Positions 2,780 to 64,000 of a stretch of DNA of 64,000 nt are shown one piece after another. The notes under the pieces are model-generated. The model did no database searches and was not told where the DNA came from. It saw only the letters and a program-made list of their open reading frames with translations. How positions within the stretch are numbered: position 1 is the stretch's first letter; each line of letters opens with the position of its first letter. The stretch spans positions 14,502 to 78,501 of the forward strand of contig JAJRWI010000077.1 in the NCBI GenBank assembly GCA_024276825.1, in the 5' to 3' direction. Made by a program: the position numbers and the translations under genes. The stretch comes from an archaeon. Its GTDB lineage: Archaea > Asgardarchaeota > Thorarchaeia > Thorarchaeales > Thorarchaeaceae.

Positions 2780-2821
2780 ACAGGCTCACTCTTATCCCCA
2801 TTTTCTTATGGAGGCAATGAT

Positions 2822-5800: not shown

Positions 5801-8800
5801 GGACGCGACGCTCTCAATCTGACTGATCTCGACTTTACGAACTATACAATTTATGACTCCGATAACAATATTATTTCAACAGGCAATCTCACCCATCTTG
5901 GCTCCGGCATCTATCGGTTCTCGGACTCCAACCTCAATACATCAGATGTTGGAAGCTATGAGATTGTAATCTGGCTTCATAAACTGAACTATATGAACCA
6001 TACTTTCACTTTAACAGTCACAATCAATGCAGTGCTAACTGAACTTGTCTGGACCACCGACCCATCTGATTATACTTGGGGCACAGGAATAAGTTTTGTA
6101 ACCCTTGAGTTTCGAGATACTGTTCATGGGGGAACGATATCTGGTGTGTCAGTGACGTATTCATGGATAGACGTTTCATCAGGGACAACTGTTCTCGTAG
6201 AGTCATCAAGTTCTCTGACATACTTGTATGCAAACAATATTGTTGCAAATGGCACATATCGAATCTATGCCTATGCCACCAAACAAAATTATCTCGCTGC
6301 TGATAGTACATCTGTTTCTTTTCTGGTTTCTCCCGCAAGTACAAGCATCTCGCTGAAATCATCCGACACAATAACTATTGAATGGGGCAGCGAATATGCA
6401 GAGTTTGACTTTGACTATGTTCAGGCACCTTTCACCGTAGCGGGCGCCTCTGTGATTAATATTGATTGGACTGGAGAATACAGTCTTGTTGATTATGACA
6501 ATGGAACTTACACATTGAGAATGCTTGCAGTTCAAGAAGCAGCAAACTATACAGTCACTTTCACGATGTGGATAGAAAATCGTACCAAGGCCTCAGAGAC
6601 CGTATATGTCAATGTGCTGATCCCATTGGATGTTTCATCATCTGAAGGGAAATCACTACAAGACCCAATTCAGGAGTACTGGACACGTTCATTCATGCTA
6701 CAAGTAATCGCTGGAGATCAATCCAATCAATCAGAATATGTTTCTGGAGTAATTGTCACTTACAACTTTCCAGCGGGTGGTATCTCTGGAACTTTCACAG
6801 AGAACGCCACTGGTCAATACTATTGGCTGGAGTTTCCAGCATCACTTGCTCCTGGTCCTGGAGTGTACGAGATTCAAGTGGAAGCAGCAAGAATTGGGTG
6901 CACAGGAACTTCTCTGTCAATTTACATTGAAGTTCTTCCAACTCCAACAAGGATAACCGCTCAGAATCAATTATTGACAGTCTACTATGCAGACTCTTAC
7001 CTACTCAATTTCAGCTGGTCAACAACTATTGATACTCCTGTTGGCATTGAAGGGCCAGATAATGTGCACATTGAACTATGGAAGAGCACGAGTCTTGTCA
7101 ATGGAAGTATTGCTGGTATTGTTGAGCTGGGCAATGGTGACTATCAATTCTTGATGGACACACGAATGCTTGGAATGACCGCAGACTCTCCTCTATTTCC
7201 AACTAGTTATTACTTTGTCATCACAATGAACAAACTTGGATACGAGGAGCCTCTTGCCGTCACAATAATCATTCTTGTCTTGCAGACTCCTACAGAGATG
7301 ACAGCAGATCCAATAGAGCCAGTCATCTGGTCGGAAGATTTCACAGTCAGAGTTCACATTCGCGATATAGTTCACAATGAGTATGTCTGGACTGATGCTT
7401 CAGTATACTTCATTTATGAGGACATTAATGTTACAATGACCTCTCTTGGTAATGGGACATTTGTACTGACTGGCGATTCTGCTGACTATTTCTCATCGTC
7501 AGACTTGCCTCACTCAGTTACTATCATCTATACATTACCAAACTACGTTGATGGACAGATTCAGGTGGAAGTGCAGATCAATCCAAAACCTGCCTATATT
7601 CTTAATCTACCGCTAGATGATACTTATGACTGGACTGACACAATCGATCTTACTCTGGATATTATTATCAATGGCACAACCACAAGACTTGAGGTTGACA
7701 GTTGCTACTTCTATTGGAAAGAGTACCCTGCAATAAATGGAACACTCGCATATGATTCAATATTCAACAGATATCTTGGTACGGTGAACACAAAACTAGT
7801 TCCAGCAGGTAACCTGACACTTGTGCTTGCAGCAGTCAAGGGCAACTACACAATTCCTGAGATTGAAATCTCACTGGAAATTAAGCCATTGCCTGCCAAG
7901 CTTAATTCAGTATCTGGTGATCTGCTAACTGTGATATATGGTCTTGATCAGTCAGCTCAGATTATTATGGCATATACACACGGAGACAATGATACTGTTC
8001 TGGAAGGTGCGAGAATCACCTTCATTTGGAATGGCCTTGAGCGTGAGGCTCTGTGGAGTGATGGTCAATACATCTTCGAGTTTAATCCATCATCTGACAC
8101 TTCACTTGAAGTTCCTGGTACTCTGGAACTTGTGTTTACTGCAGCACTTCAGAACTACACAACTGAAACTACCACAGTTCTAATGAGACTCGCTGCAAGA
8201 ACCGAAATTGTTGGCGGTCCCTATCGAGTCGAGTCTGAACAATATCTCAATCTTATCTTCAAGTATTGGGATGTTGTCAATGACAGACCCGTTGGGTCTG
8301 CAGCCACGGTTCAATACCAGATTGGAAACAACACCCCTGTCACGGTGACTGCAGAGCAGTTTGATGGAACTCAGTACATAATTCGTATACTTGCCGATGA
8401 CATCGGTGAAGTGAGCCCCGATCCCTATCAGATCCGGATATTTGCAAGCGCACCTGGCTATCAGAATTGGACCGTATTGGATGATCCTCAATACATCACA
8501 GTCTATGTAGACCCACCTACTGTCCAAATACCATTAATAGGCCTATCAATTGAGAGGTCTACGCTGTTTTTGGTTGGCGGAGTCAGTCTGCTGTTCATTC
8601 TTGGTATACTAGGTGCAATCGCAGTTCAACGCATGCGTATACCTTACCAGATTAAGCAGATTAACAAAGCACTGAAAGCTATTGAGAATGACAAGAAGGC
8701 CCGTGTTGAGGGCATCAAATCCATGGGCACTATCATCTGGGAGCTTCTTGAGCCTGGTCTAGCCACACTCAATATCACCCCTGATGTTCTTGGCGCAATC

Positions 8801-9379
8801 TTGGAAGCTCCCGTAGAAGAAGAGATTGCACTTGAAACTGAGGAACTCCTTGATGAGCTTGAGGCGCTTGAAGATATTGAGGCCGAACCAACTCGGGAAG
8901 ATGCTGCTTATGAGGAAGAATTGGTCGCCGAACTGGAAGAAGCAGTTGAAACCGCCGCGCAACCCGTAGAAGTCACAGGGCTGGTGGAAGAGCAGCCCGA
9001 AACCGGAAAGGCAGAGTTGATGCCAGAGGCTGAAGAAGAAACAACAGAAGAATCGGGGCCTGAAGAGGAACTCGAAGAAGATGAAGAAACTGACACTGGA
9101 GAACCTATTACCGAACCAGAACCCCCAGCTGATGAAGAGCCTAGCATGCCAGATGAAGAACCCATTGAAGATCTAAAGGACGACACAATCGAGCCTGACA
9201 TGGACGAAACTGAAGAGTCAGCGGGAAACATCGACCGGCCAGAAGAAGATGAATCTGTTGAATCCAATGATGAGGCGCCTGAGCCAGAATCGCAACTAGA
9301 TGAAGCCCCCTCTGATGACTCTGATGAATCATCTGGATCAACTGATCTTGTTGATGGAAATGGTGAAGGTGATGAATGA
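2822..9379 (+). CDS. Giant (2185 aa) secreted, membrane-anchored surface glycoprotein-like protein. It has a signal peptide, a DUF2341-like N-terminal region, multiple carboxypeptidase-regulatory/Ig-like beta-sandwich domains, a C-terminal TM (~8563-8628), a conserved juxtamembrane motif and a polyacidic tail.
   Basis: ATG at 2822 is preceded by GGAGG. The signal peptide is MLTMRRKILLLSFVLVFLLIPGSNNA. There are dozens of N-x-S/T sequons. The TM stretch is LFLVGGVSLLFILGILGAIAV, then QRMRIPYQIKQINKALKAIENDKKARVEGIKSMG, then a D/E/P-rich tail of about 290 aa. Confidence 0.85.
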   Translation: MLTMRRKILLLSFVLVFLLIPGSNNAIFDTVRQDLAVTNHSTISADIEESTPWWNTTFHYRMHVNLTDTNSTTRVDVPTHVWLTFENNTCYKYSIRVVDSNNVEVPSQVYNYTYWENPNYVKSATVFWYANISADSTSVYWVYFSELTTIEQTNYDSVVWFARTTGALSGKFDVNYWSFRGEWYNVTMYNAAGGKITNGAHKKADGTWDWNWGTNRGSMHWNPDGLGGQATSATPPISGTTFVNINGPLFINYTTQLPFGSYAKLNVTYTFYKWGWITRIYIKYTASTGGSGRTDEWVFYPYLTIEGIEVAPDGTQTYYSNWAPSSNKGLPAGFGWWNNNGISHGTVRILHEAYNMPAGHEDDFNNYYYRWWDTSSYEFWDTYHPSVTVQAGTVLKEECAFAVWNGAEGEDGYMRVFNATSRYLPIFREISNVSSYSFRINVKDLGGNNIEGANVTLLNPITGARLYKPTGAPYTDLTDSDGNVTFIGLLNQTYRIDVWIDTTTWLTPEAGATGMNVTWSGTAVADGPFTPVSITLDLASITIHLDDLAGDPLGTVGAETVKVWIYNASDPSRANWKYMDYETTDSSGDLTFYRLPKCDWLFNFTYSNTDTGHIYTKADFGLYVSHNIDESLITDDLTRSWVLPLTTIDFYVEAYDGQPVENTYVRISKAGTADPIATGVTDSYNITHMTDANGNVTFYRVLKGNWTVVVYRTDDYGQTAYNTSEYVYDTTGYAYKKISIPLTWLRIRVVDNNNNRVTGAKIDLYANGVFLVTAYSDSAGEYNFHWIKANDTSIGWSYTVTISKNTAQTSDSVYASYDYLHWNTITLTPPAYTQKYTELNCTASVYSWYYADNGTFQIGWFNRTSTSPSTWEDQSLNQSEYFAGTMNFTISHNGVVIGFGVWNSTHHLYISHYTSDGIYFTIAIDTLLFKMNASNIPYIITIKAETPNYDAPEEYTVTVVISVASTTRNGATSLEAYYLDGFAALYSLTTNPSGRDALNLTDLDFTNYTIYDSDNNIISTGNLTHLGSGIYRFSDSNLNTSDVGSYEIVIWLHKLNYMNHTFTLTVTINAVLTELVWTTDPSDYTWGTGISFVTLEFRDTVHGGTISGVSVTYSWIDVSSGTTVLVESSSSLTYLYANNIVANGTYRIYAYATKQNYLAADSTSVSFLVSPASTSISLKSSDTITIEWGSEYAEFDFDYVQAPFTVAGASVINIDWTGEYSLVDYDNGTYTLRMLAVQEAANYTVTFTMWIENRTKASETVYVNVLIPLDVSSSEGKSLQDPIQEYWTRSFMLQVIAGDQSNQSEYVSGVIVTYNFPAGGISGTFTENATGQYYWLEFPASLAPGPGVYEIQVEAARIGCTGTSLSIYIEVLPTPTRITAQNQLLTVYYADSYLLNFSWSTTIDTPVGIEGPDNVHIELWKSTSLVNGSIAGIVELGNGDYQFLMDTRMLGMTADSPLFPTSYYFVITMNKLGYEEPLAVTIIILVLQTPTEMTADPIEPVIWSEDFTVRVHIRDIVHNEYVWTDASVYFIYEDINVTMTSLGNGTFVLTGDSADYFSSSDLPHSVTIIYTLPNYVDGQIQVEVQINPKPAYILNLPLDDTYDWTDTIDLTLDIIINGTTTRLEVDSCYFYWKEYPAINGTLAYDSIFNRYLGTVNTKLVPAGNLTLVLAAVKGNYTIPEIEISLEIKPLPAKLNSVSGDLLTVIYGLDQSAQIIMAYTHGDNDTVLEGARITFIWNGLEREALWSDGQYIFEFNPSSDTSLEVPGTLELVFTAALQNYTTETTTVLMRLAARTEIVGGPYRVESEQYLNLIFKYWDVVNDRPVGSAATVQYQIGNNTPVTVTAEQFDGTQYIIRILADDIGEVSPDPYQIRIFASAPGYQNWTVLDDPQYITVYVDPPTVQIPLIGLSIERSTLFLVGGVSLLFILGILGAIAVQRMRIPYQIKQINKALKAIENDKKARVEGIKSMGTIIWELLEPGLATLNITPDVLGAILEAPVEEEIALETEELLDELEALEDIEAEPTREDAAYEEELVAELEEAVETAAQPVEVTGLVEEQPETGKAELMPEAEEETTEESGPEEELEEDEETDTGEPITEPEPPADEEPSMPDEEPIEDLKDDTIEPDMDETEESAGNIDRPEEDESVESNDEAPEPESQLDEAPSDDSDESSGSTDLVDGNGEGDE

Positions 9380-9498: not shown

Positions 9499-10380
9499 AT
9501 GATTAGAGAGATTCATGTCTTTAAGGATGGCGAGACTCTGTTCGAGGATGTCATTGTGCCCAACAAAGACCTAGACACAAAAGCAGTAATGATGCTTGTT
9601 TCCTCATCCTGCAAGAAACTGCAAGAGTGGAAAATTGACAGCATGGAGATTGAACGCTTTCGATATGTATACATGAACAGTCATGATACACAATTCATCA
9701 TCACTATGGACCGCCAGGCCTCATTAATGAAGGTTCACGAGGCAATGACATCTGCTGTATCAAAATTCATGACTGCCTTTGAGAGTGTTCTGGAAACTGA
9801 TGAATGGAAATCAACTGACTTTTCACCCTTCAAGGATGGCTTTAGAAGGATTGTCAGTAGGATTCCAGTGAAAGTCTGTCTTGCAGGTCATGGTGGTACC
9901 GGTAAAACAACTCTTCTTGAGCTTGCCACAATGCCATCGCAAGGGCCACCTCAAGAGTATGTGCCAACTTTCTTTGGCGATAAGGCTCTATTAAAGGCAG
10001 ACTTTGATCCATATGTGTTCAGCATGTTTGACCTTGGTGGCCAAGACCGTTTCGTACAAGAATGGGGCAAGATAATTCGGGCTGGTTCTCTTGTTGTGAT
10101 TGTGACAGACTCTACTACTGAGAACTTGGCATGGACCAAGAGAGTCGCTTACCCCGTTCTAAAGAACGAGTTACCTTATGCACGGGCAATAGCAATAGCA
10201 AACAAGCAGGATCTTCCTGGAGCTCTATCGCCTCAAGAGGTGAGCAGGAAGCTGGGAGTACCGGCGTACGGCATGCAGGCAAATAAGATGGACTTTAGAG
10301 ATCGATGGTTGAAACTGCTAAGAGGGTTGGCTTTTGAAACCCTTGATTTTGCAGTAGTAGGAGAAATAGAGGTGGAATAA
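9499..10380 (+). CDS. Roadblock/LC7-like N-terminal domain fused to an Arf-like (Arf/Arl-type) small GTPase.
   Basis: Residues 1-110 predict an alpha-beta-beta-alpha-beta-alpha roadblock-like fold. The GTPase motifs are G1 GHGGTGKTT, a switch I Thr in YVPTFFG, G3 FDLGGQDRF and G4 IANKQDLPGA. The DxGGQ + NKQDLP.A pair is the Arf-family signature. Confidence 0.8.
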   Translation: MIREIHVFKDGETLFEDVIVPNKDLDTKAVMMLVSSSCKKLQEWKIDSMEIERFRYVYMNSHDTQFIITMDRQASLMKVHEAMTSAVSKFMTAFESVLETDEWKSTDFSPFKDGFRRIVSRIPVKVCLAGHGGTGKTTLLELATMPSQGPPQEYVPTFFGDKALLKADFDPYVFSMFDLGGQDRFVQEWGKIIRAGSLVVIVTDSTTENLAWTKRVAYPVLKNELPYARAIAIANKQDLPGALSPQEVSRKLGVPAYGMQANKMDFRDRWLKLLRGLAFETLDFAVVGEIEVE

Positions 10381-10381
10381 G

Positions 10382-10942
10382 ATGTCAGATCCAAGTGAAA
10401 CCACAAAGAGTATACTTAGTGAGGAGGAGCGAAAGAGACTCATCACTGAAATTGGGAATATAAAGAATATTCTTGATAGCTTCAAATATGGCCTGAACTT
10501 CGAGCAATTCGCTGATGCTTTGTTCAAGACCATTGACCGCCAGACACTGGCAATCAACAAGCTAGAGGCGCAGATGAGAGAGATCATTGAGAGAATGAAG
10601 AATCTTGAGAAACGATTCGATGAAGGTATTAGAGTCACAGTTTCTGGAGCTGTGAGTGCCGAAGGTGGTATTGAACCAACAGAAGTGATAATTGGCGACA
10701 AGGCAGAAGAAAAGGCAAAAGAAGAACCAACTACTCCTCCTGATATTGAAGTCATCAAAAAAGAGATAGAAGAGCTGAAAATCAAAATTGCCAAGCTGTT
10801 CGAGAAGGAGAATGAACTCACTGAGATGGCCATGAATGACCCGGCAGCAGCCGATGAGTATGAAGAGAAAGCAAGAGTTGCTCGTGAAATGAGAGTTGAA
10901 CTGGAGGCCAAGAAAAAAGAATTGGAGGACAAACTGCAATAG
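10382..10942 (+). CDS. Coiled-coil protein (186 aa). Its start is 1 nt after the GTPase stop.
   Basis: Charged heptad-rich sequence with a K/E-rich C-terminal half. Translationally coupled to the upstream GTPase gene. Confidence 0.6.
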   Translation: MSDPSETTKSILSEEERKRLITEIGNIKNILDSFKYGLNFEQFADALFKTIDRQTLAINKLEAQMREIIERMKNLEKRFDEGIRVTVSGAVSAEGGIEPTEVIIGDKAEEKAKEEPTTPPDIEVIKKEIEELKIKIAKLFEKENELTEMAMNDPAAADEYEEKARVAREMRVELEAKKKELEDKLQ

Positions 10943-10957
10943 CAATTGAGGTGATCA

Positions 10958-11305
10958 ATGAAAATGGGAATTTTCGATAAATGGAGAAGGAAGAAGCACA
11001 GAGCTGAAATGAGTGGTACTAAAGTGCCTGCACCACGACCAATTTCTGCAAGGGAAATGAGTTCTGAAGTGCAGGCGGAGATAGTCAGTCTTGTTGCTGA
11101 ATATGAGCAATTGTACAAGCGACGATCAGAACTTCAAGCTGAAAGAAGCGAATTGACTGAGCGCCTGGACCGCGGTGAATTGACCGCAATTGAATTCAGG
11201 AAACTTCTGATGGAGAAGATTCAGGAAGCCGCACAAGTGGCAGAGAGCTTAAAAGCAACAGCTGCTCGGTTGACAGAACTCGGCTATCGTGGAGTACTTC
11301 GCTGA
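10958..11305 (+). CDS. Small coiled-coil protein (115 aa).
   Basis: A GAGGTGA Shine-Dalgarno sits 6 nt upstream. Basic N-terminus followed by a predicted long helix. Same operon orientation. Confidence 0.55.
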   Translation: MKMGIFDKWRRKKHRAEMSGTKVPAPRPISAREMSSEVQAEIVSLVAEYEQLYKRRSELQAERSELTERLDRGELTAIEFRKLLMEKIQEAAQVAESLKATAARLTELGYRGVLR

Positions 11306-12695
11306 GGTGGGAACGCTGTCCAGGCGTGAAGATGAAGAACCCGAGACCCCCTCTGATATTGAGGAAAGGACTCGTCAGCTAATGGAGAAAGCATTAGGCA
11401 CCTCTGAATCGACAGATGTGCATGATGAAGGAGCCCCATTAGCACCAAGCACATCTCTCGCGGGACAGATATCTGAAACTTTTTTCAGGATTCAGATTCG
11501 CATGGAAGATCTCATCTCATCGATTGAAGACTCGATTAGGTCTATAGAACCTGAGATCAACGAGTCCCTAAAGAGCACGATTGAATCCATTTCTGAGCGG
11601 TTAAGGCGTGAGGCAGGTCTTGGTGTGTTCACAAGCAAGACAGTGAAAATTGTAAGAGAAGAGCTGGAAAAGGCCCTCTCCGTAGAGGCAGTTCATAAGG
11701 GCCTATTTGCTGCTCTTGCTGAAAGCCGTGAACAGGTGCGTGACATAATTCAAAAAACCAGCCGCGGTTCAATTCGTGAAATTGACAGACGCATTAGCAC
11801 ATTACAATCGAAAATTGTTCATGTTTATGCCAGACTGAACGAGCGAGAGCAAGAGATTGACAAGTTAAGATCAACAATAACCGAGCTTCGCAGCAAGATT
11901 TCCGAGATGAATGACATAATCGCACGTAAGGACAAAGAGATGGCTGAATATGTTAAACGACTTGACTCATTATTAGCAACCAGAGACCAATTGGCTGCAA
12001 AACTTGTCGAACAAGACTCCACCATATCCTCATTAACTGGACAGCTCAAGCAAGCAAGCTCTGAGATATTGCAATTGAAGACAATGATTGAGAAGATGGA
12101 CTCTGCTGAGGAGCTTGTTGTCGAATATGAAAACATGACAAAGACACTATCTGAATTGCAGGGACGCTTGGCTGAACTTCAGGAAACCCTCAAGCAGAAA
12201 GACATGACTATTGACGAGCTAAGCGAAACAATTAAGGAGTTCAATGCCGAGAGATCTGAACTTCAGTCACGTGTGCAAGAATTGGATGAAGAGGTCTCAC
12301 AGCTTCGTGGTGCCAAAGAGGGCTTGCTGTTAGAGATCGAAACCCTCAGGCGAAAGATTGCTGAACTTCAGGCACGTTGGGAACTATTATATCAAGTGGC
12401 TGAGGAAAGCCCTGCTTTCAGAGCATATTTTGTGGTCGCTGATAAGGAACACTGGTTTCCCCTATCTCACCTGTCTTCAGCACTGGGCATTCCTGTTGTG
12501 CGACTGAAACAACAATTAGAACGATTCATAGAAGTTGGTCTCTTAGAGATTGATGGCGACCGCATCCGCCCGAAAAAGCTCACTGAGGTTGTCAAAGAGG
12601 TCTTGGACCAGGATGAAAGGGTCCTTTCAGAGGCGAGGGGGGACTTGGGCATGGGGGATGACACCAATAATGAACAATCAGACAACGATACATGA
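11289..12695 (+). CDS. Long coiled-coil protein (~460 aa) with a C-terminal winged-helix-like domain ending in ...GLLEIDGDRIRPKK. The start is uncertain (GTG at 11289 or GTG at 11307).
   Basis: An acidic N-terminus is followed by roughly 300 aa of heptad-rich sequence (LQSKIVHVYARLNEREQEIDKLRSTITELRSKISEMNDIIARKDKEMAEY...). The C-terminal segment looks like a winged helix. It overlaps the previous gene by 17 nt, or starts 1 nt after its TGA stop if GTG 11307 is used. Confidence 0.6.
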   Translation: MEYFAEVGTLSRREDEEPETPSDIEERTRQLMEKALGTSESTDVHDEGAPLAPSTSLAGQISETFFRIQIRMEDLISSIEDSIRSIEPEINESLKSTIESISERLRREAGLGVFTSKTVKIVREELEKALSVEAVHKGLFAALAESREQVRDIIQKTSRGSIREIDRRISTLQSKIVHVYARLNEREQEIDKLRSTITELRSKISEMNDIIARKDKEMAEYVKRLDSLLATRDQLAAKLVEQDSTISSLTGQLKQASSEILQLKTMIEKMDSAEELVVEYENMTKTLSELQGRLAELQETLKQKDMTIDELSETIKEFNAERSELQSRVQELDEEVSQLRGAKEGLLLEIETLRRKIAELQARWELLYQVAEESPAFRAYFVVADKEHWFPLSHLSSALGIPVVRLKQQLERFIEVGLLEIDGDRIRPKKLTEVVKEVLDQDERVLSEARGDLGMGDDTNNEQSDNDT

Positions 12696-42831: not shown

Positions 42832-45800
42832 TTGTGTTCAAGAAAGCTGTTAATATTCGGACTGATAATGCTGATTACGCTCTTTCCGACATACTCAACA
42901 AATCCTAATTCAATATCAGTTAAACCTCTTATAGAGATTCAACTCACGCAAGAGCACTCGCAAGAGTTTACAGAATCAGACCCCATATACATTTGGAGTG
43001 ATGATGATTTTTTAACCAATGGCTTCTCTGGATCGGGTACTATTGACGACCCATATACTCTTGAAAGCAAAGAGATATTCTCAGATTACAGTGCAATACT
43101 AATTCAAGATACCTATGCACACTTTGTCATCCGAAATTGCATTCTAGGAGCAAATGGACCATATTCAGTTCCTGTTAGAATTATAGATGCAGCAAATGGG
43201 CGTATTGAGAATTGTACAATAATCTCTGGTGATTGCGGAGCCGTTCTAAGCTATTCAAAGTCGATTGAGTTTATCAATAACAAAGTTCATGCAAAATCAT
43301 ATGGACTTATGATTCGAAACTCAAAAGACAGTCTGGTCAGCAAGAATAGTTTCTATAATTGTGGAATTGATATTTACGGTGAAAAGATAGAGTATTGGAC
43401 AAATGAGATATATGACAACGATATTAATGGTCGGCCGATTAGAATAATAAAAGACAAAGTCAATGTGACAGTTGGTTCAGAAGACTTTGGTCAATTAATT
43501 CTAATTAACTGCACAAATGTCATTTCTGAAGATATCAGTATTGTCAATAATTCTACTGGACTCGTTATGGGATTCTGTAGTAATATAACAATAAACAGGA
43601 CTACTTTTACTAATAATTATAGAGATCTCTCCTTTATTGCCTGTCAGGACATTGCAATTACAAATTCAATAATGACTAACATCACAGATGGAATTAACGC
43701 GGACTATTGTACGAACCTCGTATTGGACAATGTTACAGCTATTTATTCATCAAGTGATCATAGAGTCTATCTATATTTGTATGATTGTCAAAACATCACC
43801 ATGACAAACTGCATCTTGAATTTCACTGGAAATGGGGTTATAATCAGCTCAAGTGATAACATGCTGATTTCAAACTGCATTTTCATCGGCATTAATAATG
43901 CAATCACACTTCAACAGGGTGAAACTATAATTGCTAGCAATAATACCTTTGTTGACGCATATTATGTATGTGCATTATATTCTTCTTCCAATTTTAGGTT
44001 CTCTAACAATACCGTTGAGAATTGCCGATACGCTTTTGCTCAGATCTTTGATTGCACGGATATATATGTTAGCGATAACACAATCGCTACATATGGCCTC
44101 TTTTATTGGGGATTTTCAAGGAATTCCAGTTTTAGAAGAAATCATATAACAATAACAGGAAGCGGTGAGTCAGATCTTTCTATGCTGAGTGATTCATTTA
44201 TCGAGAATAATACAATTATAGCTATTAATCCATCATCTGTTGTAATACAGAATTGTGATAATCTCAAAGTTTCTAATAACAAGTTCATCAATGCAGGGAT
44301 TGTAATATCAGGGGAATATCAGATTGGCTCTATCACCTTCTCTGGGAATACTGTGAACAGCCTTCCGATGATTGTTGTCATAAATCAAAATGGACTGACA
44401 TTTCAAGACTCGCAGATTGGCCAACTGATCATTATCAACTCAAATAATATTGATGTGAAAAATTGCACCTTTACTAATAGTGCGGTTGGAGTTCAGTTTC
44501 TGAATTCAACGGATATCCTTGTATCAGATTCTACATTCTTAAATCTGCGAAAAGCTGGAGTCTTAGTACAAGGCTTTGATATTAATGTTGAAAACTGCTA
44601 TTTTGAAAATGCGACTGTTTCAGGCAGATTGTCTACCAATTTAAGAATAAGCAATTGTTACTTTGTCAATGCGGCGGCTGAGTTTGATAGTTGTCAGCTG
44701 GTCCAAATTAGTTTATCCACATTCATCAATCATCGTATGGAGTGGCAGAAATCGAATAATATTACGTTTGCAAAGTGGAAGATGATTGGAGAACAAACTA
44801 GTTTACGGTTTGTTTGGTGTAATGACATATATCTTAGTTACGTTCAAATCGTTCAAGGAGAAGGAATTGAATTTTCATCTTGCAGCCTAGTGGCTTTGGT
44901 AGACTGTGATCTCGAAATATCTTACCTCCATTTTTGGGATAATTTGAATGAAGGATTGCCTCTTACAGTGTCTAATGTAACCATTAATGGAAAGGAACTG
45001 GGATACTTTGTAGAAATCAATAATGGAAGACTATTTTGTGATAATTATGGTCTAATTATTCTAATAAGATGTTCGAATATCTCAATTTCAGCATCATCTG
45101 GTGAACCTATCCTAGGAATCATGTTATATCGCTCACTGAATTGTACAATTAATGAAGTCACTCTAGAGAGTGAGAAAGTATCAACAGTTCAAATAATAGA
45201 AAGTGAGGATTGCATTGTACAGAATATCCGTCTTATAGGTGGGGGAATTGAGATTTTGGCATCATCAGGAACACTCATTAAAAATGGCACATTTGACTCT
45301 GTTGAAAAGTCATTTAAGATAGTTGACTCATCAGCAGTCACAATTCAAAACATCAGTGTTAATAATTCTGGAGGGATTTTAGAGAGCCATGAATCAAATA
45401 ATCTAGTTGTCAATGGGTCTCGTTGGTACAATACCACCTATTCTCTGTTTATTCATGGTGGAAAAAATTCAAGCTTTAATGGATGTAATTTTACCTATGT
45501 AAACAACTCACTATTATTTATTGAACTGCATGAACTGACTCTCAGTTTTATTGATGTAATTAATAATTCCGATGATGGAATTGTACTAACTAGTGTGAGC
45601 AACTTCACCCTATCCAATTCAAGGGTCATCTCAGCTAATGGGTACGGAATAGTTTTGATGAATTGCAATATTGGTAATATCACTAAAAATCGCGTATATT
45701 TCTGTGAGAATTATGGCATATACATGGGTTTTGCAAATAACATCACAGTCAAAAACAATGCAATCGGATGGAACAATTTAGGAAATGCAAAGACAGATAA

Positions 45801-46311
45801 AACAAGCGCTATTTGGGATAGTAATTGTTGGTCTGATTATGATGGTGGAGGGGTGTATATCATTGATGAAAAAGATGATCAAATAGACTATTCGCCCAGA
45901 ATTCTAGCGCAGCCTGATTACGAACCCCCTAAAATCGATCATCCCCAAGATGTTATCATTTCTGCGGGTGATGCCAGTAACATAGTCTGGCATCCAAGAG
46001 ATGAAAATCCATTCAGATATGAGATATTTCTTGATGGACAGATCATAGAGAATTCGGAGTGGGATGGACAAAACATAGAGTTTACCATCTCCATAACATC
46101 GCTTGGTGAACACATTCTTGTGATAAGAGTGTATGATGTCCTAGATGATTTTACAGAAGATATAGTGTTAGTAATAGTCAATAACAACAATGAACAGCTA
46201 TATTTGATGTTTTGGAGCGGAATAATCGTTGTTGAAGTTGTCATCTGGATCTATCTATTTCACCAACGGGGTCGTATATTGGAAAGACGGCAGCCTCCTG
46301 ATAGCGTCTAA
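42832..46311 (+). CDS. Large secreted parallel beta-helix (pectate-lyase-fold repeat) surface protein with a C-terminal TM anchor. Adhesin-like.
   Basis: TTG start with GGGAGG 5 nt upstream. Signal peptide MCSRKLLIFGLIMLITLF. There are ~40 imperfect ~22-25 aa repeats with N-x-x-I/V-x-N patterns (e.g. ITNSIMTNITDGINADYCTNLVLDNVTAIY). C-terminal LYLMFWSGIIVVEVVIWIYLF, then a short basic tail. Confidence 0.75.
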   Translation: MCSRKLLIFGLIMLITLFPTYSTNPNSISVKPLIEIQLTQEHSQEFTESDPIYIWSDDDFLTNGFSGSGTIDDPYTLESKEIFSDYSAILIQDTYAHFVIRNCILGANGPYSVPVRIIDAANGRIENCTIISGDCGAVLSYSKSIEFINNKVHAKSYGLMIRNSKDSLVSKNSFYNCGIDIYGEKIEYWTNEIYDNDINGRPIRIIKDKVNVTVGSEDFGQLILINCTNVISEDISIVNNSTGLVMGFCSNITINRTTFTNNYRDLSFIACQDIAITNSIMTNITDGINADYCTNLVLDNVTAIYSSSDHRVYLYLYDCQNITMTNCILNFTGNGVIISSSDNMLISNCIFIGINNAITLQQGETIIASNNTFVDAYYVCALYSSSNFRFSNNTVENCRYAFAQIFDCTDIYVSDNTIATYGLFYWGFSRNSSFRRNHITITGSGESDLSMLSDSFIENNTIIAINPSSVVIQNCDNLKVSNNKFINAGIVISGEYQIGSITFSGNTVNSLPMIVVINQNGLTFQDSQIGQLIIINSNNIDVKNCTFTNSAVGVQFLNSTDILVSDSTFLNLRKAGVLVQGFDINVENCYFENATVSGRLSTNLRISNCYFVNAAAEFDSCQLVQISLSTFINHRMEWQKSNNITFAKWKMIGEQTSLRFVWCNDIYLSYVQIVQGEGIEFSSCSLVALVDCDLEISYLHFWDNLNEGLPLTVSNVTINGKELGYFVEINNGRLFCDNYGLIILIRCSNISISASSGEPILGIMLYRSLNCTINEVTLESEKVSTVQIIESEDCIVQNIRLIGGGIEILASSGTLIKNGTFDSVEKSFKIVDSSAVTIQNISVNNSGGILESHESNNLVVNGSRWYNTTYSLFIHGGKNSSFNGCNFTYVNNSLLFIELHELTLSFIDVINNSDDGIVLTSVSNFTLSNSRVISANGYGIVLMNCNIGNITKNRVYFCENYGIYMGFANNITVKNNAIGWNNLGNAKTDKTSAIWDSNCWSDYDGGGVYIIDEKDDQIDYSPRILAQPDYEPPKIDHPQDVIISAGDASNIVWHPRDENPFRYEIFLDGQIIENSEWDGQNIEFTISITSLGEHILVIRVYDVLDDFTEDIVLVIVNNNNEQLYLMFWSGIIVVEVVIWIYLFHQRGRILERRQPPDSV

Positions 46312-58135: not shown

Positions 58136-58298
58136 CTTCTCGCCGTTATTTAATTACAAAGGCAGATTAATAACCTATTTACTTCTGCATTGCAAAAATG
58201 CTTATTAATTCAACCATATCTCAATATAAATCTTAATGCACTATTCACGCAGTAGATTTTTAACGTGTATCTTTTCTTCCCGGACCATCATAAACAGC

Positions 58299-59492
58299 AT
58301 GAACAAGAGGGTACTGAATTTGCCGCTGAACAACACCAATATCGTAAGCGCAGCCCAGACAAAATTTGGGAAGCTCGAAGGGATCACAATTAGAGAAATG
58401 TTTGCTGAAGCCGTTGACAAAGCAACTGTTGAAGCTGGGATTCCCAAAAAGGACATTCAAGCTGCTTTCATTGGAACTTTCATCCCAGAGATGCTGATTC
58501 ATCAGGGACATACTGCACCGTTGCTAATAGATTATGCAGGACTAAGAGGTCTTCCAGCGACACGTCATGAGGCAGCGTGTGCTTCAGGAGCCACCGCATT
58601 AAGAGCAGGAATAATGGCCATCGAATCAGGTCTCTATGATACCGTGCTTGTCGCTGGTGCTGAGAAGATGACTTCGGTATCAACAAATAAAGTCACTGAA
58701 GCATTAGCCGCAGCAGCTGATGATGAGTTTGAATCATCAATTGGCTTGACGTTCCCTGGCGTGTTTGCAATTGCAGCAGTTGCACATATGCAAAAGTATG
58801 GGACCACTGAGGAAGACATGGCACGTGTAGCAGTTAAGGCCCATTACAATGCATCTACCAATCCACTGGCACAGTTTCAAAAAGAGATCACACTTGAGAA
58901 AGCACTCACTCCAAGATATATTGCATGGCCATTGAAACTGTTTGATTGCTCTCCCATATCAGACGGTGCAGCAGCAATTGTTCTGACCTCTAATGAAAAG
59001 GCAAAGGAATACACAGATCTGCCAGTGAAAATAATTGGGACTGGTCAGGCTTCTGCATCAATGGACCTGTGCAACAGGATTGAATTAACCTCTTTTGAAT
59101 CCTCAGTGAAAGCAAGTAAGATTGCCTATGAGATGGCAAAACTGGGTCCTGAAGACATGGACTTTGCAGTTGTACATGACTGCTTTACAATTGCTGAGAT
59201 TATTGCCAGTGAAGACATTGGGTTCTTCAAACCTGGTGAGGGTGCTAAGGCTGTCCGTGAAGGCATTACCGCCAGAGATGGTGATAAGCCGATCAATCCG
59301 ATGGGTGGTCTCAAGGCGGTAGGACATCCTGTTGGTGCTACTGGTGTCAAGCAGGCAGTTGTAATCTACAAGGAACTAATAGGTGAAGCAGGCAAGAATC
59401 AGGTGCCCAAATATGACACTGCATTGATGCACAATTTCGGAGGCACGGGCGCAACCTGTGTTGTCAATATAATGAGGAGGGCTGACGCATGA
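58299..59492 (+). CDS. Thiolase (acetyl-CoA C-acyltransferase family).
   Basis: AACASGATALRAG (active-site Cys context) and C-terminal GHPVGATG. The likely start is ATG 58299 (MNKRVLNL...), not 58236. Confidence 0.8.
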   Translation: MNKRVLNLPLNNTNIVSAAQTKFGKLEGITIREMFAEAVDKATVEAGIPKKDIQAAFIGTFIPEMLIHQGHTAPLLIDYAGLRGLPATRHEAACASGATALRAGIMAIESGLYDTVLVAGAEKMTSVSTNKVTEALAAAADDEFESSIGLTFPGVFAIAAVAHMQKYGTTEEDMARVAVKAHYNASTNPLAQFQKEITLEKALTPRYIAWPLKLFDCSPISDGAAAIVLTSNEKAKEYTDLPVKIIGTGQASASMDLCNRIELTSFESSVKASKIAYEMAKLGPEDMDFAVVHDCFTIAEIIASEDIGFFKPGEGAKAVREGITARDGDKPINPMGGLKAVGHPVGATGVKQAVVIYKELIGEAGKNQVPKYDTALMHNFGGTGATCVVNIMRRADA

Positions 59493-59887
59493 ATGACAAG
59501 TCCAACAAACCAACTATTGAGAAATACAAGCAATTCATCCAAGAAGGCAAGTTCCGCGCGTTCAAATGTTCAGACTGTGGTGCAGTGATTGCTCCACCTC
59601 TTGGCTCTTGCTATAGTTGTGGAAGCAGCAAGATGGAGTGGACTGAAATCAGTGGCAAGGGCAGGCTGGTTTCTTTCACAGTCATCCATGTTGCACCCGA
59701 GGAGTTTCAGGATGAGGCCCCTTACTACATTGCTATTATTGAGCTTGATGAAGGAACCCGTGTGACTGCAAGACTATCAGGATTTGACCCTCTCAAGCCT
59801 GAAGATGTCAAACTTGGGACTTCAATGGAACTCACTTTCATTGAGAGTCCAAAGGGGAGGAAGTATCTGGCCTTCAAAGCGGCCTGA
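59489..59887 (+). CDS. DUF35-family Zn-ribbon + OB-fold protein, thiolase partner.
   Basis: CSDCG...CYSCG followed by an OB-fold. ATGA overlap with the thiolase stop. AGGAGG 10 nt upstream. Confidence 0.75.
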   Translation: MNDKSNKPTIEKYKQFIQEGKFRAFKCSDCGAVIAPPLGSCYSCGSSKMEWTEISGKGRLVSFTVIHVAPEEFQDEAPYYIAIIELDEGTRVTARLSGFDPLKPEDVKLGTSMELTFIESPKGRKYLAFKAA

Positions 59888-59942
59888 AAATGTAGAGCAT
59901 TCAAGCTCTGCTTCCTCTTTTTTCCATGTTTCGATATAATGA

Positions 59943-60638
59943 TCAATTCTCTCTGGTCATCAATTTGGCCCAATCTATCTTTACGAGAAGATAAATTGCG
60001 ATTATTATTAGCAGTACTGTAGCCACCTCTATGCTCCTCGACATCGGGCTGTCAGGGTTACCACCTGCAAATATCTGGGCTACAAACTCCATTCCTAAGA
60101 ATCCTGCCCATGCAATTCCAATTAGCATCATGGCCTTACCGATGAAACTAGGAATCACGATCTTCCACCATGGATATTTTGCGGCACCTAACGGGACAAT
60201 CAAAAAGTCATCTGGCAACGGTGTAATGGCAAGAATCCAGATGATGAGTGGAATCGCTCTTGGGTGATTCTCGGCATATCTCCTAAAGCCATCTGTATGA
60301 CTCTCATCAAGAAGATGGCCCCCACCATAGCCCACAACATATCCAGTCATCTCACCTGCAAGAGCCCCAACAGCTTAAATTATTCCAACAAGTGTGGGGT
60401 CTAGAAGACCTCCAAGAACAAAAGGAATGATCACGTATGGAAATGGAAAGACTATTGTTGCATTGCCAATGAATGATCCAATTAGGACACCAAAGTATCC
60501 TCCATGAATTGCAAATGTTGTTAGTCCCTGATACATGGCAGTAAATGGGCTAGCAATCTCTGGATAAACAAGTGCTATAATCCAATACGCAATAACAAGG
60601 ATGACCGCAATGCCAAATACTTTGTCAGCTTTATCCAT
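59943..60638 (-). pseudogene. DedA/VTT-domain membrane protein interrupted by a single in-frame TAA (minus-strand codon at 60375-60377).
   Basis: The two ORF-track pieces (60375-60638 and 59943-60350) are in the same frame. Their joined translation ...PFVLGGLLDPTLVGII*AVGALAGEMTGYVVGYGGG...PLGAAKYPWWK... reads as one continuous DedA protein. Confidence 0.6.
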
Positions 60639-60742
60639 GGTTAGTCCCCATATTACTTGGTGTTAATTACTGATAATTGCTGAGTCTATGCCATGGTATA
60701 CTTAAGTAATCTTGGCTTCACTAATACTTGGAGTTCTTGATA

Positions 60743-61936
60743 ATGACTGTAATCCCCTATGGAGATGAAGAATTAACATTGAATCTTCCAACTGGTTGTG
60801 ATCAAACAGAACTCAATATAATTGATCCTCCCCCATTGTACGACTTTAAGATGGAACTATTGCGCTTACTTGAGTCTTCACCATTCAGTCTTAATTCCAA
60901 TAATATAATTGCCCTAATATGTGATACTAATCCTGCTTCTGTTCAGGTATTAAATACTCTTCTCAATTCTCTATCCTATATTACTGAGCTGGAACGTGTG
61001 AGAGTATTCATTATTGCCCAGAACGGAATTCCTTCTGATATGCCCAAGCTAGACTCCAAATATCCAATTATTTATCATGACCCACGAGAATCAGCAAAAC
61101 AGATGATTGGTTACACTTCGTATGGCACACCTGTTGAGATCAATGCAGATTTTCTTGAATCTACAATTAGAATCACACTCGGTTCATTTCTGCCAGACCC
61201 ATTTTGGTCAATGACCGGCAGCCTGACTCATATATTGCCTGGCTTGACTTCTCACAGGACCAACATCACAAACACAAGACTTGCATTAAGTCAGAAACCC
61301 ATGCCAATGAATTTCAAGGCAAAGCGGTTCATAGATGCAAGTGACGCAGTTGAACTTGCCAATATTGACATGTTTCTGACTGTTCAAACCAAGACTCGAA
61401 ATCAGATCGTAGGACTATCTGCTGCTTACTCCATAAATGATCTCCTAATGCTCTTCAAAAATGCATCCAGAATCTTTTTTCAAAGAGTTAATCGATATCA
61501 CGACCTTATTATTGTTGGAGCAGGAGGCTCGCCACTAGACTCTACACTGTTTGATGCAATACCAGCACTTTACTCTGCTCTCTCAATAACTAGAAGAAAT
61601 GGAACAATTGTGTTAGTTTCAAAATGTGCATCGGGTCTGGGCCCTATCAGCTTTGCTACACTAGTGAATAAACTTGACCAATTGGAACAATCACAAATAC
61701 CTTGCCAAATTGGCTCTGAAAAGATACATTTCCTTCTGGAAGTTTTGAAATATAACCGTCTTCTAATATATTCAGATTGTCTTGATGCCAGACTGAATGA
61801 TATACACCCTAATATTGAGGTTCTCTCAAACCTTGAATCATGTATCGATGCTGCATATTCATCCATGACAAGTGCATCTAGAATCCTAGTAATTCAGGAT
61901 GGACATCGAATCATTCCAATGACTGCAACTATCTAG
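60743..61936 (+). CDS. LarA-like (DUF2088, nickel-pincer lactate racemase family) protein. Call is tentative.
   Basis: About 400 aa. The N-terminus MTVIPYGDEELTLNLP resembles the LarA N-terminal 'l.lpyG...l...lp' signature. The ORF tracker start is TTG at 60728. Confidence 0.35.
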   Translation: MTVIPYGDEELTLNLPTGCDQTELNIIDPPPLYDFKMELLRLLESSPFSLNSNNIIALICDTNPASVQVLNTLLNSLSYITELERVRVFIIAQNGIPSDMPKLDSKYPIIYHDPRESAKQMIGYTSYGTPVEINADFLESTIRITLGSFLPDPFWSMTGSLTHILPGLTSHRTNITNTRLALSQKPMPMNFKAKRFIDASDAVELANIDMFLTVQTKTRNQIVGLSAAYSINDLLMLFKNASRIFFQRVNRYHDLIIVGAGGSPLDSTLFDAIPALYSALSITRRNGTIVLVSKCASGLGPISFATLVNKLDQLEQSQIPCQIGSEKIHFLLEVLKYNRLLIYSDCLDARLNDIHPNIEVLSNLESCIDAAYSSMTSASRILVIQDGHRIIPMTATI

Positions 61937-62250
61937 GAACGATTATCACTGTCAAAAATCGCATCCACAGCAGTGAGGGCCCCATCAATCTCAGAAGGAG
62001 TAAATTCCTTCAACTCGCCAGTCTTTGCAATCTTGATAATGACAAGGGCATCCTCATTTTGCGGTGTCATTGTCCAAGAGATATCAAATCCCGGAATCTC
62101 TTTCATAATAGACTTCAAAACGCTGAGCCATGCATCTTTCACATCATCCAGAGTGATATAGAGAAACTCAATAAGGGGGATTGTTATCTCTACCGTTAGT
62201 ACCTTTCCCTCTATAATGTAATAGTTTTCAACAGTCCATTGACCAGTCAA
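61933..62250 (-). CDS. Small hypothetical protein (105 aa).
   Basis: ORF only. Confidence 0.3.
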   Translation of the reverse strand: MTGQWTVENYYIIEGKVLTVEITIPLIEFLYITLDDVKDAWLSVLKSIMKEIPGFDISWTMTPQNEDALVIIKIAKTGELKEFTPSEIDGALTAVDAIFDSDNRS

Positions 62251-62307: not shown

Positions 62308-64000
62308 TTAGTCGGTGTTCTCATCGTCTTCCTCTTTTTGAGACTTTAATAGAATTTCTACATCTTCAATGAATGCTTCTCGTGGGTCTTTCTCCTTTGG
62401 TTCCTCTCCCAAGGGTTGATCTTTCAAACTCTCATCCTCATTAGTTTCAGCGGGTCCCTCTCTATCTCGCTTCTCCTCACCGGGCTCAACCTCCTCCCCT
62501 TCCAATTGACCCTCCTCTATGGACTCTACGCTGTCTTGGCTTGTTTCTTCCAGCGAACTTTCAACGTCGGTGAAATTAACATCATCACTACCACATACAA
62601 AGCTACTGCCTATCCGTCTTGCACTTTCTGTCACATCAACAGGCATAATGAAGCCTCGCTTTGCCATACTTAGCAATATGTCCAATGTTTCAGGCTCTGT
62701 TTTGCCCAGTGTGTTTGCCACTTTTTCTAAAACATCTGCAATTCTTACAAGGCCTGCGTCATTAACTAAGGGCGATATTATTTTAATAACAGTCTTCTCC
62801 AAGCCTTTTGGCTTCTTTTTGGCATTAATTCTATGCGGAACCATCCACTCATAATGTAGGCATTCATATAGTGTTCCTATTATCCACTTTTCATCAAAGC
62901 CATTGAGAATTCCTACCCAATTCTCCAACACATCATGATATTGCCTCTCAAACTTTGAAACAAATGCCTCCAGATTCTTTCTCATTTCAGAATTGACCTC
63001 GCCCTCTGAAATCAGAATCCCTACAACATAATCACCACTATAGCTATTCAGCCTGAGTCCCTGATAATGGATTTCCTCCAGTGTTCCCTGTCCTCCCTCA
63101 CCTGTAATTTCCCCATAGACACTAGTGATAGCAGAAATGAATCCACTGATTAAATCGGGTTGAATGCGTGCTTCCGTAAATGGATGATAAATGACACAAA
63201 CCCCTCGATTGATGTAGATGGCCATGAAGTGTCTTAGTGATTTTAGCATATTGAAATACTGCATTTGCTCTGCCAAGTTCATCAGTTTTGCTCTTTTCTT
63301 GGGCTTGTGCAATTTCGAATATGCTGCAACTACAGAACCAACCACTACCACTAATATGATCAGAATCAAACCTATTGGGCTAGTTAGAAATGCAGTCAAG
63401 CTCTCTATTAGACCTGGTGCGGGTCTGACTGCCAGCTCGACTTCCTGAGTTGATACGGCCCACTCAGATACTGATCCTCTAAACTCTGCCCATACAATAA
63501 CACTCTCGACTCCCTCAGGTATTTCAAAGGCAACTTCTGCAATTCCCTCTGCATTTGTGATGGCGCTCTTGTTGAGAATATTTCCATTGATCTTCATATG
63601 CACGATTATCTCTTTACCACTTACAGCTCCATGATCACTTGTGAGCTGTACGCTCACTCCAAGAGTTGCTCCTTCAATGGCCTGACTTGTTTCAATATCC
63701 AGATAGTACAGCGTCTTTGCATCAACAATTAAAGAAACTGTTGTCGTTGAGATTTCGCAGTAATCTCCGAAACCTGTGAGTGTCATCACATAGTTCCCAG
63801 GTTCCAAGTCCACTAGAAAGTCTTTTGCAAAGTATCCATTTTCGTCATCATATGTGAGATTGAATAACAAATCGCCAACATCAACTATGACCCACCCCCA
63901 CCTGACTGGGATGTTTCTATCAGTGTCCATGAACTCTGCAATAATGTGAATTGTTTCTTGCTCATATTGCGAGTAGCTCGACTCCACATTCAAGGATGTG
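62308..64000 (-). CDS. Receptor-like membrane protein. The frame is still open at the window edge, so the N-terminus is outside. It has a beta-sandwich ectodomain, a single TM, a cytoplasmic roadblock/LC7-like domain and an acidic E/D-rich tail.
   Basis: No signal peptide at the called TTG start, and the frame stays open to nt 64000. TM segment IGLILIILVVVVGSVVAAY, then KLHKPKKRAK. The cytoplasmic region has a roadblock-like pattern (GVCVIYHPF...LISGFISAITSV...YVVGILISEGEVNSEMRKNLEAFVSKFERQY). The tail is ...EEGQLEGEEVEPGEEKRDREGPAETNEDES... Confidence 0.65.
   Translation of the reverse strand, partial: TSLNVESSYSQYEQETIHIIAEFMDTDRNIPVRWGWVIVDVGDLLFNLTYDDENGYFAKDFLVDLEPGNYVMTLTGFGDYCEISTTTVSLIVDAKTLYYLDIETSQAIEGATLGVSVQLTSDHGAVSGKEIIVHMKINGNILNKSAITNAEGIAEVAFEIPEGVESVIVWAEFRGSVSEWAVSTQEVELAVRPAPGLIESLTAFLTSPIGLILIILVVVVGSVVAAYSKLHKPKKRAKLMNLAEQMQYFNMLKSLRHFMAIYINRGVCVIYHPFTEARIQPDLISGFISAITSVYGEITGEGGQGTLEEIHYQGLRLNSYSGDYVVGILISEGEVNSEMRKNLEAFVSKFERQYHDVLENWVGILNGFDEKWIIGTLYECLHYEWMVPHRINAKKKPKGLEKTVIKIISPLVNDAGLVRIADVLEKVANTLGKTEPETLDILLSMAKRGFIMPVDVTESARRIGSSFVCGSDDVNFTDVESSLEETSQDSVESIEEGQLEGEEVEPGEEKRDREGPAETNEDESLKDQPLGEEPKEKDPREAFIEDVEILLKSQKEEDDENTD

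Follow-up and report, generated by a model that had tools for sequence, protein, structure and literature searches.

What a roadblock-like domain might be doing directly beneath an archaeal membrane is the question raised by one end of a Thorarchaeaceae contig. We analysed 64,000 nucleotides (nt) of this DNA, hereafter the window (assembly GCA_024276825.1, contig JAJRWI010000077.1, positions 14,502 to 78,501 of the forward strand). A minus-strand open reading frame (ORF) has its stop codon at 62308-62310 and reaches no start by base 64000, so that only its last 563 codons are visible. An earlier note on this DNA had read the product as a single-pass membrane protein with a roadblock-like domain behind the membrane, and had proposed a GTPase-regulatory module acting together with other genes of the window. 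We know of no account of what the small-GTPase and roadblock/longin expansions of Asgard archaea sense, or where they act. As read from its sequence and that of its relatives, the product is a giant (~1,500-2,100 amino acids, aa), heavily N-glycosylated type I surface protein with a cytoplasmic roadblock/longin module next to the membrane. On balance, we lean towards the view that this module serves as a docking platform close to the membrane, carried by a conserved surface glycoprotein.

A giant surface protein with a conserved cytoplasmic part

The ORF is coding, as a protein search returned 45 homologous proteins at E values of 1e-108 to 1e-56. In a scan of one genome per species, with patterns specific to the orthologue group of the target, 52 syntenic orthologue loci were found, one per genome (a count that refers to this group), all of them in Thorarchaeota or in metagenome-assembled genomes (MAGs) labelled 'Promethearchaeota'. 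Complete orthologues are 1,480-2,172 aa long; those among the close profile matches (~1,460-2,170 aa) carry the module at the C-terminus, and complete genes in the genome loci comprise 1,480-2,126 codons. The window thus shows a quarter to a third of a giant protein, at its C-terminal end. This size had escaped the earlier note, as had the connector, the winged helix and the conserved tail motif. The gene may be broken by the end of the contig besides that of the window. Its visible parts, with coordinates verified by translation, are the following:

62308..64000, minus strand: 3' part of the giant-protein gene, 563 codons and stop; the 5' part (~900-1,600 codons in orthologues) lies past the window edge
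63691..63942, minus strand: plausible extracellular immunoglobulin (Ig)-like beta-sandwich unit, residues 20-103, which aligns to sub-threshold CarboxypepD_reg matches of orthologues P0021 and P0010
63472..63687, minus strand: plausible membrane-proximal Ig-like beta-sandwich unit, residues 105-176, which aligns to a sub-threshold Big_1/MG4/MG2 match (E 1.4e-6) of orthologue P0016
63319..63375, minus strand: single transmembrane helix IGLILIILVVVVGSVVAAY, residues 209-227, mean Kyte-Doolittle hydropathy 2.9, followed by basic SKLHKPKKRAK
62941..63303, minus strand: predicted juxtamembrane helix and roadblock/longin-fold domain, residues 233-353, from the AlphaFold2 (AF2) model, Foldseek against the PDB and invariant positions
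62815..62940, minus strand: conserved helical connector, residues 354-395, with invariant W361, G363, F368, D369, W372, L377 and Y383, from the AF2 model
62611..62802, minus strand: predicted winged-helix domain with acidic third helix, residues 400-463 (AF2 helices 172-183, 192-203 and 207-220, strand 223-225, in model numbering)
62311..62592, minus strand: predicted disordered acidic tail, residues 470-563, from composition and a predicted local distance difference test score (pLDDT) below 50 from protein residue 465
62347..62388, minus strand: conserved tail motif DPREAFIEDVEILL

The helix IGLILIILVVVVGSVVAAY is the only hydrophobic one in the visible part, in agreement with the single pass proposed earlier. 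A signal or anchor is present at the N-terminus of complete orthologues and of distant relatives, whose NxS/T sequons number 3.1-6.1 per 100 residues before the transmembrane helix compared with 0-0.6 after it. Because the sequons are concentrated before the helix, a signal or anchor stands at the N-terminus and SKLHKPKKRAK conforms to the positive-inside rule, the topology is predicted to be type I, with residues 1-205 of the visible part extracellular and the C-terminal part cytoplasmic. These same features answer the possibility of an inverted topology, which had been named as a way in which the earlier reading could fail.

Conservation divides along the membrane. The whole protein is 31-43% identical between orthologues and target, and the length of the ectodomain varies; in orthologue P0059 it contains five tandem repeats of ~95 aa each. 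The cytoplasmic module, in ten divergent orthologues, has a mean column identity of 68% and 66 invariant positions, and across 46 aligned sequences 43 positions are invariant, the majority of them within residues 233-353.

An extracellular beta-sandwich had also been claimed, and here the outcome is divided. The target ectodomain has no Pfam match of its own, and the orthologue matches that map onto its residues 20-103 and 105-176 are all below threshold. Orthologues match CarboxypepD_reg (seven), Big_1 (four) and MG4 (three), a single Ig-like match exceeding its Pfam cut-off (P0027, 34.6 bits against 32.3). Residues 105-176 are moreover 25-30% identical to the corresponding region of a giant paralogue encoded upstream of the orthologues in other genomes. 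From these weak matches, a beta-sandwich ectodomain is plausible.

The gene seems hard to assemble: a contig end cuts it in 27 of the 52 loci, and the 3.16-Mb 'chromosome' CP070761.1 (loci L001 and L005) has a run of N at ~9900-10000, inside the ectodomain-coding part of the orthologue. We considered whether contigs break systematically in this gene and rejected the idea, since 27 of 52, given short contigs, is not clearly above expectation.

Fold of the module and its wider family

Residues 229-480 were modelled by AF2 from 46 sequences (pLDDT 78; predicted template-modelling score, pTM, 0.74; model residue 237 is protein residue 465). In model numbering, a helix at 5-26 begins right after the membrane and is followed by strands 27-34 and 39-45, helix 53-70 with the invariant DLISGFISA, a flexible Gly-rich loop, strands 87-93 and 97-103, helix 109-125 and further helices at 127-131 and 142-153. 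Over residues 233-353 the predicted element order is alpha-beta-beta-alpha-beta-beta-beta-alpha, with the family signature DLISGF(I/L)SA. The elements coincide with those that had been named from the letters as a roadblock-like alpha/beta domain, namely the strand VCVIYHP, the helix PDLISGFISAITSVYGEI, the hairpin LRLNSYS/YVVGILI and the helix SEMRKNLEAFVSKFERQ. Foldseek against the PDB gave 8 matches at E <= 1e-3; of the best 50 listed, almost every one is a longin or roadblock structure. The principal matches, with target-normalised template-modelling scores (TM-scores) and root-mean-square deviations (rmsd), are:

Sec22b: TM-score 0.67-0.69, rmsd 3.5 A
AP-1 sigma3: TM-score 0.65, rmsd 4.1 A
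VAMP7 and SYBL1 longin domains: TM-score 0.51-0.62, rmsd 3.8-5.0 A (4b93: 14 A)
TRAPP Bet5/Trs23: TM-score 0.57-0.60, rmsd 4.8-5.5 A
LAMTOR2/3: TM-score 0.46-0.56, rmsd 6.5-9.6 A
AP-2 sigma and zeta-COP (several entries): TM-score 0.47-0.51, rmsd 6-12 A
Mon1-Ccz1 and Fuzzy/Inturned: TM-score 0.20-0.24 (long targets), rmsd 8-12 A

The three-layer alpha/beta core of the superfamily, beta-beta-alpha-beta-beta-beta, is found in both the AF2 elements and the Foldseek matches, and the model supports the assignment of residues 233-353 to the roadblock/longin fold at the superfamily level. Like the proteins of the roadblock/LC7-longin superfamily, the module has this core flanked by helices (Foldseek probability 1.0, target-normalised TM-score up to 0.69); unlike them, it matches no sequence model, continues from the transmembrane helix of a giant surface glycoprotein and has a winged helix behind it. 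With the topologies of the two branches defined as in PMC10933270, the model mixes their traits: helix 5-26 at the N-terminus is a roadblock trait and the C-terminal helices are a longin trait, while TM-scores are 0.6-0.69 for longin structures versus 0.46-0.56 for LAMTOR. Since both helix traits are predicted, we leave the domain unassigned between the two branches.

Among 1.84 billion cluster representatives, a 235-position profile of the module (alignment A3) matched 926 at E <= 1e-3, 356 at E <= 1e-10 and 48 at E <= 1e-30, and the majority of the best 150 matches take in the winged helix as well as the fold. Matches at E 1e-30 to 1e-18 mostly extend over these two parts as well; here the module is placed C-terminally, or nearly so, in proteins of 900-3,025 aa, or else belongs to short proteins that are soluble or anchored in a membrane. 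Among the members are three proteins of the cultured Candidatus Lokiarchaeum ossiferum (WP_371805894.1, WP_457919335.1, UYP45289.1), one of Ca. Harpocratesius repetitus (MCF2139683.1, 3,025 aa), one from Sigynarchaeota (MDO8114005.1) and various others from Promethearchaeota; judged by these matches, the module is spread over at least three Asgard groups, Thorarchaeota, Lokiarchaeia and Sigynarchaeota. A transmembrane segment lies less than 70 residues upstream of the module in 164 of 210 family proteins, and 35 of the 210 begin at the module, being fragments or soluble forms. In Lokiarchaeia members, long coiled-coil or tetratricopeptide repeat (TPR)-like tails replace the acidic tail and its motif.

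Searches of Pfam, NCBIfam and PDB sequences returned nothing for the module, which is a new, large domain architecture of a known fold family, unmatched by any Pfam model. It merits a family definition of its own because the Pfam models miss it. Expansions of roadblock, longin and GTPase families, including longin fusions and NPRL2-like families in Thorarchaeota, have been described in Asgard archaea (PMC10933270; bioRxiv 10.1101/2020.10.19.343400); in a limited set of Asgard full-text literature we found no description of a membrane-anchored giant architecture with this module.

The NPRL2/NPRL3-like proteins, which occur in most Thorarchaeota genomes (Liu et al., bioRxiv 10.1101/2020.10.19.343400), deserve comparison. 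Like the module, they combine a longin-type domain with a small domain behind it, helical or winged-helix-like, at the C-terminus, and they are found in Thorarchaeota and some Lokiarchaeia; by contrast, giant forms anchored in the membrane are not mentioned for them in the main text of Liu et al. Membership in NPRL2/NPRL3 (GATOR1) was rejected: hhalign gave a probability of 0.1% against an approximate human NPRL2 sequence, GATOR1 chains are absent among the PDB sequence matches, and neither the target nor the 46 orthologues match Pfam NPR2/NPR3. As a separate observation, most of the wide family has an Arg in 'GEY[IV]R' on strand 5 (target residue ~327), where Thorarchaeota orthologues have V/I-G. 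The stretch with this Arg was set by hhalign, at no statistical support, on NPRL2 'KYSRNALLF', which we take to be the region of the Arg-78 finger.

Possible docking at the membrane and the GTPase question

A hypothesis of how the docking platform would work may be drawn from this architecture. The transmembrane helix runs, through one continuous predicted juxtamembrane helix, into the conserved module. By analogy with its fold relatives, the roadblock/longin domain would pair with a partner, either as a homodimer or as a heterodimer with another roadblock/longin protein, and it would act jointly with the winged helix and the tail motif to tether a conserved cytosolic partner wherever the surface protein sits.

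The fold has several precedents for small-GTPase partners, namely MglB-MglA, Ragulator-Rag, Mon1-Ccz1 and TRAPP, and Koonin and Aravind reportedly proposed a part for roadblock/LC7 proteins in NTPase regulation. Because of these precedents, a small GTPase, or an Asgard roadblock-GTPase fusion, is the most specific candidate for the partner by analogy; because the genomic evidence is thin, we hold this identification to be tentative and rather doubtful. The genes of the window that bear on it are clustered at its other end:

89-2779 and 2822-9379, plus strand: giant single-pass proteins with acidic tails; transmembrane helix present, longin-winged-helix module absent
9499-10380, plus strand: Arf-like GTPase with a 120-aa N-terminal extension (Pfam Arf 1.6e-12), 52 kb from the target
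10382-10942 and 11289-12695, plus strand: two coiled-coil ORFs; module absent

The earlier note had set the target apart from the giants at 89-9379 as a second type, and this distinction stands: those proteins have a transmembrane helix and an acidic tail and lack the module. The proposed link to the Arf-like fusion of the window is not supported. The two genes are 52 kb apart, and BLASTP found no significant similarity between the module and the N-terminal domain of the fusion (E 0.32). At the 52 Thorarchaeota loci, jackhmmer searches of 438 kb of flanks, seeded with the Arf-like domain of the window, ARF1, RAB1A, HRAS and MglA, recovered the fusion of the window itself and no small GTPase within 10 kb.

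A different picture was seen among relatives. Metagenomes scanned with an alignment of the Lokiarchaeia type gave 67 loci, of which 19 had enough upstream sequence; these represent 8 lineages at 80% module identity. A GTPase gene of ~345-370 aa lies within ~2 kb upstream in 11 of the 19 loci, that is, in 3 of the 8 lineages. Its product has a Ras-family domain (Pfam Ras 3e-41) and an N-terminal extension that we read as roadblock-like, and the gene is divergent in two lineages and co-directional in one. Two neighbours are constant, a gene for a cation P-type ATPase and one for ATP-grasp_5; with the giant gene they form a synteny common to six loci (e.g. L059, L070, L113), and they look unrelated to it in function. 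The GTPase adjacency is recurrent, not general, and its lineages possibly stem from one ancestral arrangement; it lends weak support to a GTPase connection of the module.

Several results weigh against the docking platform, and against its GTPase form in particular. Besides the empty flanks at the 52 Thorarchaeota loci, no GTPase domain is fused to the module in any of the 210 family proteins, and the upstream GTPase is absent from three further Lokiarchaeia genomes, including the cultured L. ossiferum, which brings the adjacency to 3 of 11 lineages overall. The upstream giant gene fills the flank in most Thorarchaeota loci and hides what lies beyond it. The fold itself was not recovered by the Robl_LC7, Longin, Sedlin or Clat_adaptor_s sequence models, either in the target (E <= 10), in the 46 orthologues (E <= 0.01) or in distant members. 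Finally, a single-copy, syntenic protein with a fast-evolving ectodomain suits a structural envelope protein equally well as a receptor. Of the regulatory module proposed earlier, the weak Lokiarchaeia adjacency is what stands in its favour, set against 0 of 52 loci and 0 of 210 fusions.

A eukaryotic parallel, Ragulator-Rag, in which a roadblock scaffold held at a membrane recruits GTPases with roadblock domains of their own, likewise has a roadblock-type fold at a membrane, and Asgard GTPases with N- or C-terminal extensions occur here too (window 9499-10380; 3 of 11 Lokiarchaeia lineages). That roadblock-GTPase fusions might be recruited in a similar manner is an attractive idea. Unlike the lipidated LAMTOR1, however, the module is anchored by a transmembrane helix of its own, and a GTPase is linked to it in 0 of 52 Thorarchaeota loci; the likeness implies no relation to TOR-type signalling. 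We give little credence to a bolder version, in which the module would be the archaeal transmembrane counterpart of the eukaryotic longin/roadblock platforms, a giant glycosylated surface receptor directly recruiting and regulating, on the cytoplasmic side, a small GTPase or a roadblock-GTPase fusion, while a longin-fold domain reads its dileucine-like tail motif.

Conserved neighbours and competing explanations

The neighbourhood of the orthologues also speaks to the earlier suggestion that the target belongs to one system with the giant receptors of the window, and it does not bear this suggestion out: the conserved neighbours are a different giant paralogue upstream and, downstream, a ~100-aa ORF followed by LarA-like, VTT, DUF35 and thiolase genes. 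The first of the downstream genes is:

61933..62250, minus strand: 105-aa ORF, 57 nt downstream of the giant gene; 50 of 52 orthologous loci

The two loci without this ORF, which is always on the same strand, stop at a contig edge. In the target and 13 homologues, all from Thorarchaeota save one labelled Hodarchaeota, the 105-aa product has 32 invariant positions, and some orthologues bear Lys-rich tails. AF2 predicts a beta-beta-alpha-beta-beta-alpha sandwich (14 sequences, pLDDT 69), for which the fold search gave no significant structural match, the best being ACT-like domains at E 8.5e-3. The ORF as an obligate partner was rejected, because the closest relative found (76% identical, L057/L058) has the ORF without a giant gene upstream; whether it belongs to the system of the giant protein is uncertain. 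Further downstream, the LarA-like gene is found at most loci, with VTT, DUF35 and thiolase genes as far as the contigs extend; the five loci with listed gene calls continue with genes for an acyl-CoA dehydrogenase and a nitroreductase and with one that is HMGL-like. In the window these genes occupy 58236-61936 (thiolase and DUF35 with OB/zinc-ribbon, split VTT/DedA-like membrane ORFs, LarA-like), an order conserved beside the giant gene across Thorarchaeota. Along with acyl-CoA dehydrogenases, these window genes indicate an Asgard archaeon of Thorarchaeota type, as do the best homologues of the target.

Upstream on the same strand, a second giant gene (at least 2,000 aa) is present in 15 of 21 loci with enough sequence (e.g. 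L020:2-6280, plus strand; L011, L022, L031, L034). The membrane-proximal ectodomain and transmembrane helix of its product are 25-30% identical to target residues 1-240, and its short cytoplasmic tail has winged helix-turn-helix Pfam matches (HTH_24 or HTH_IclR); judged by these matches, it appears to be a giant surface protein that holds a winged helix-turn-helix at the membrane. The window contains a further large and probably surface-located protein (42832-46311, plus strand, 1,159 aa), with right-handed beta-helix/NosD repeats (Pfam Beta_helix 1.3e-45).

The strongest competitor of the docking platform is a structural envelope protein, i.e. a main component of the Asgard cell coat, or an adhesin, whose module has a part in its own biogenesis, in sorting or spacing, or in anchoring to the cytoskeleton, to ESCRT or to a landmark hub, and not in signalling. 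This explanation, which we regard as a real if lesser possibility, is ranked nearly as likely as the docking platform. It is consistent with the one syntenic copy per Thorarchaeota genome, the separate conserved synteny of six Lokiarchaeia loci, the very high sequon density outside the membrane, an ectodomain that is variable and repetitive compared with the conserved inside, neighbours that are housekeeping or metabolic and not signalling genes, and the coiled-coil or TPR-like tails of Lokiarchaeia members. By analogy, it would also suit the resemblance to FimV/HubP polar landmark proteins, in which an outer domain is combined with one transmembrane helix, a cytoplasmic region that is long and acidic, and an interaction module at the C-terminus (PMC12918733); these are bacterial, unrelated in sequence and fold, and without a roadblock/longin domain, so the analogy is architectural only. 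However, a column identity of 68% over a folded 230-aa module exceeds the needs of simple anchoring. The two explanations also overlap, as a structural protein would need docking too, and differ mainly in the direction of information flow.

Much less probable is a self-regulated longin module, in which the dileucine-like motif of the tail would fold back on the longin-fold domain, or be bound by it in trans, and so control the clustering or sorting of the surface protein. An E/D-rich tail had been described earlier as following the fold. The richness is confirmed (37 D/E and 9 K/R in 94 residues of the target), whereas its place is not, since residues 354-463 (~110 residues of connector and winged helix) intervene. 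The tail is acidic in most orthologues and basic in four lineages, all of which keep the motif; across the orthologues, the conserved feature of the tail is the motif rather than the charge. Its consensus is D-[PE]-x-[ED]-x-F-[VIL]-x-[DE]-V-E-x-L-[LM], with a core F[VIL]x[DE]VExL[LM] present in one or two copies, often two, in 48 of 53 orthologues, 16-62 residues before the C-terminus. The hydrophobic positions, spaced i, i+1, i+4, i+7, i+8, would fit one face of a short amphipathic helix, and DVEILL in the target (DVESLL in the consensus) matches the eukaryotic acidic dileucine pattern [DE]xxxL[LI], a pattern match that proves nothing by itself. The best Foldseek matches, AP-2/AP-1 sigma subunits and longin SNAREs, would suit self-regulation by analogy to the SNARE motif on the longin domain of Ykt6, Sec22b or VAMP7, or to dileucine signals on AP sigma. 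Against this, a six-residue pattern is prone to chance matches, and the motif is missing from the Lokiarchaeia branch with its other tails.

The winged helix, finally, could be taken for a DNA-binding domain. NirdL-like_HTH matches it in 16 of 46 homologues and HTH_24 in 2 of 46, far under the cut-off (13-16 bits against 27), and the target itself gave E 0.071. The net charge of the domain is acidic (mean -1.7); that of its third helix is -1 to -4 in all ten orthologues examined. Proteins of the Lrp/AsnC type have an N-terminal winged helix with a basic recognition helix; here the winged helix is C-terminal and its third helix acidic. No Pfam match to the Lrp/AsnC RAM/AsnC_trans_reg effector domain was found in the target or the 46 homologues, and the region after the winged helix is predicted to be disordered. 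Judged by these features, it probably binds protein rather than DNA. Thus a membrane-tethered transcription factor of the Lrp/AsnC type, acting at the membrane or freed by regulated proteolysis when the ectodomain is engaged, is the least probable explanation because the winged helix is acidic, and also because a disordered tail, usually acidic and apt to repel DNA, stands in place of the RAM domain, even though sources label several homologues 'Lrp/AsnC family transcriptional regulator' and HTH_24 exceeds its cut-off (23.6 bits against 21.9) in the tail of the upstream paralogue in one of four orthologues tested. Regulators of the ToxR/CadC type similarly combine a membrane-tethered winged helix with a sensor domain outside, but the giant protein has the reverse order (N-terminal sensor, C-terminal winged helix), an acidic third helix and a roadblock/longin domain before the winged helix.

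Whether the docking platform or the structural envelope protein is closer to the truth, the family sets a roadblock/longin fold directly under the membrane, joined in one polypeptide to a surface domain that is giant, glycosylated and fast-evolving. Homologues in the cultured L. ossiferum (WP_371805894.1 and UYP45289.1) make the family open to direct testing. If the partner is cytoskeletal or ESCRT-related, the module would explain how the surface coat of Asgard archaea is coupled to the cell interior. If it is a GTPase, the family would link a receptor across the membrane to a GTPase in the archaea most closely related to eukaryotes, and if the bolder view of a GTPase-regulating receptor with a longin-read tail motif were true, the coupling of receptors to GTPases and the recognition of sorting signals by longin folds would both be older than eukaryotes.

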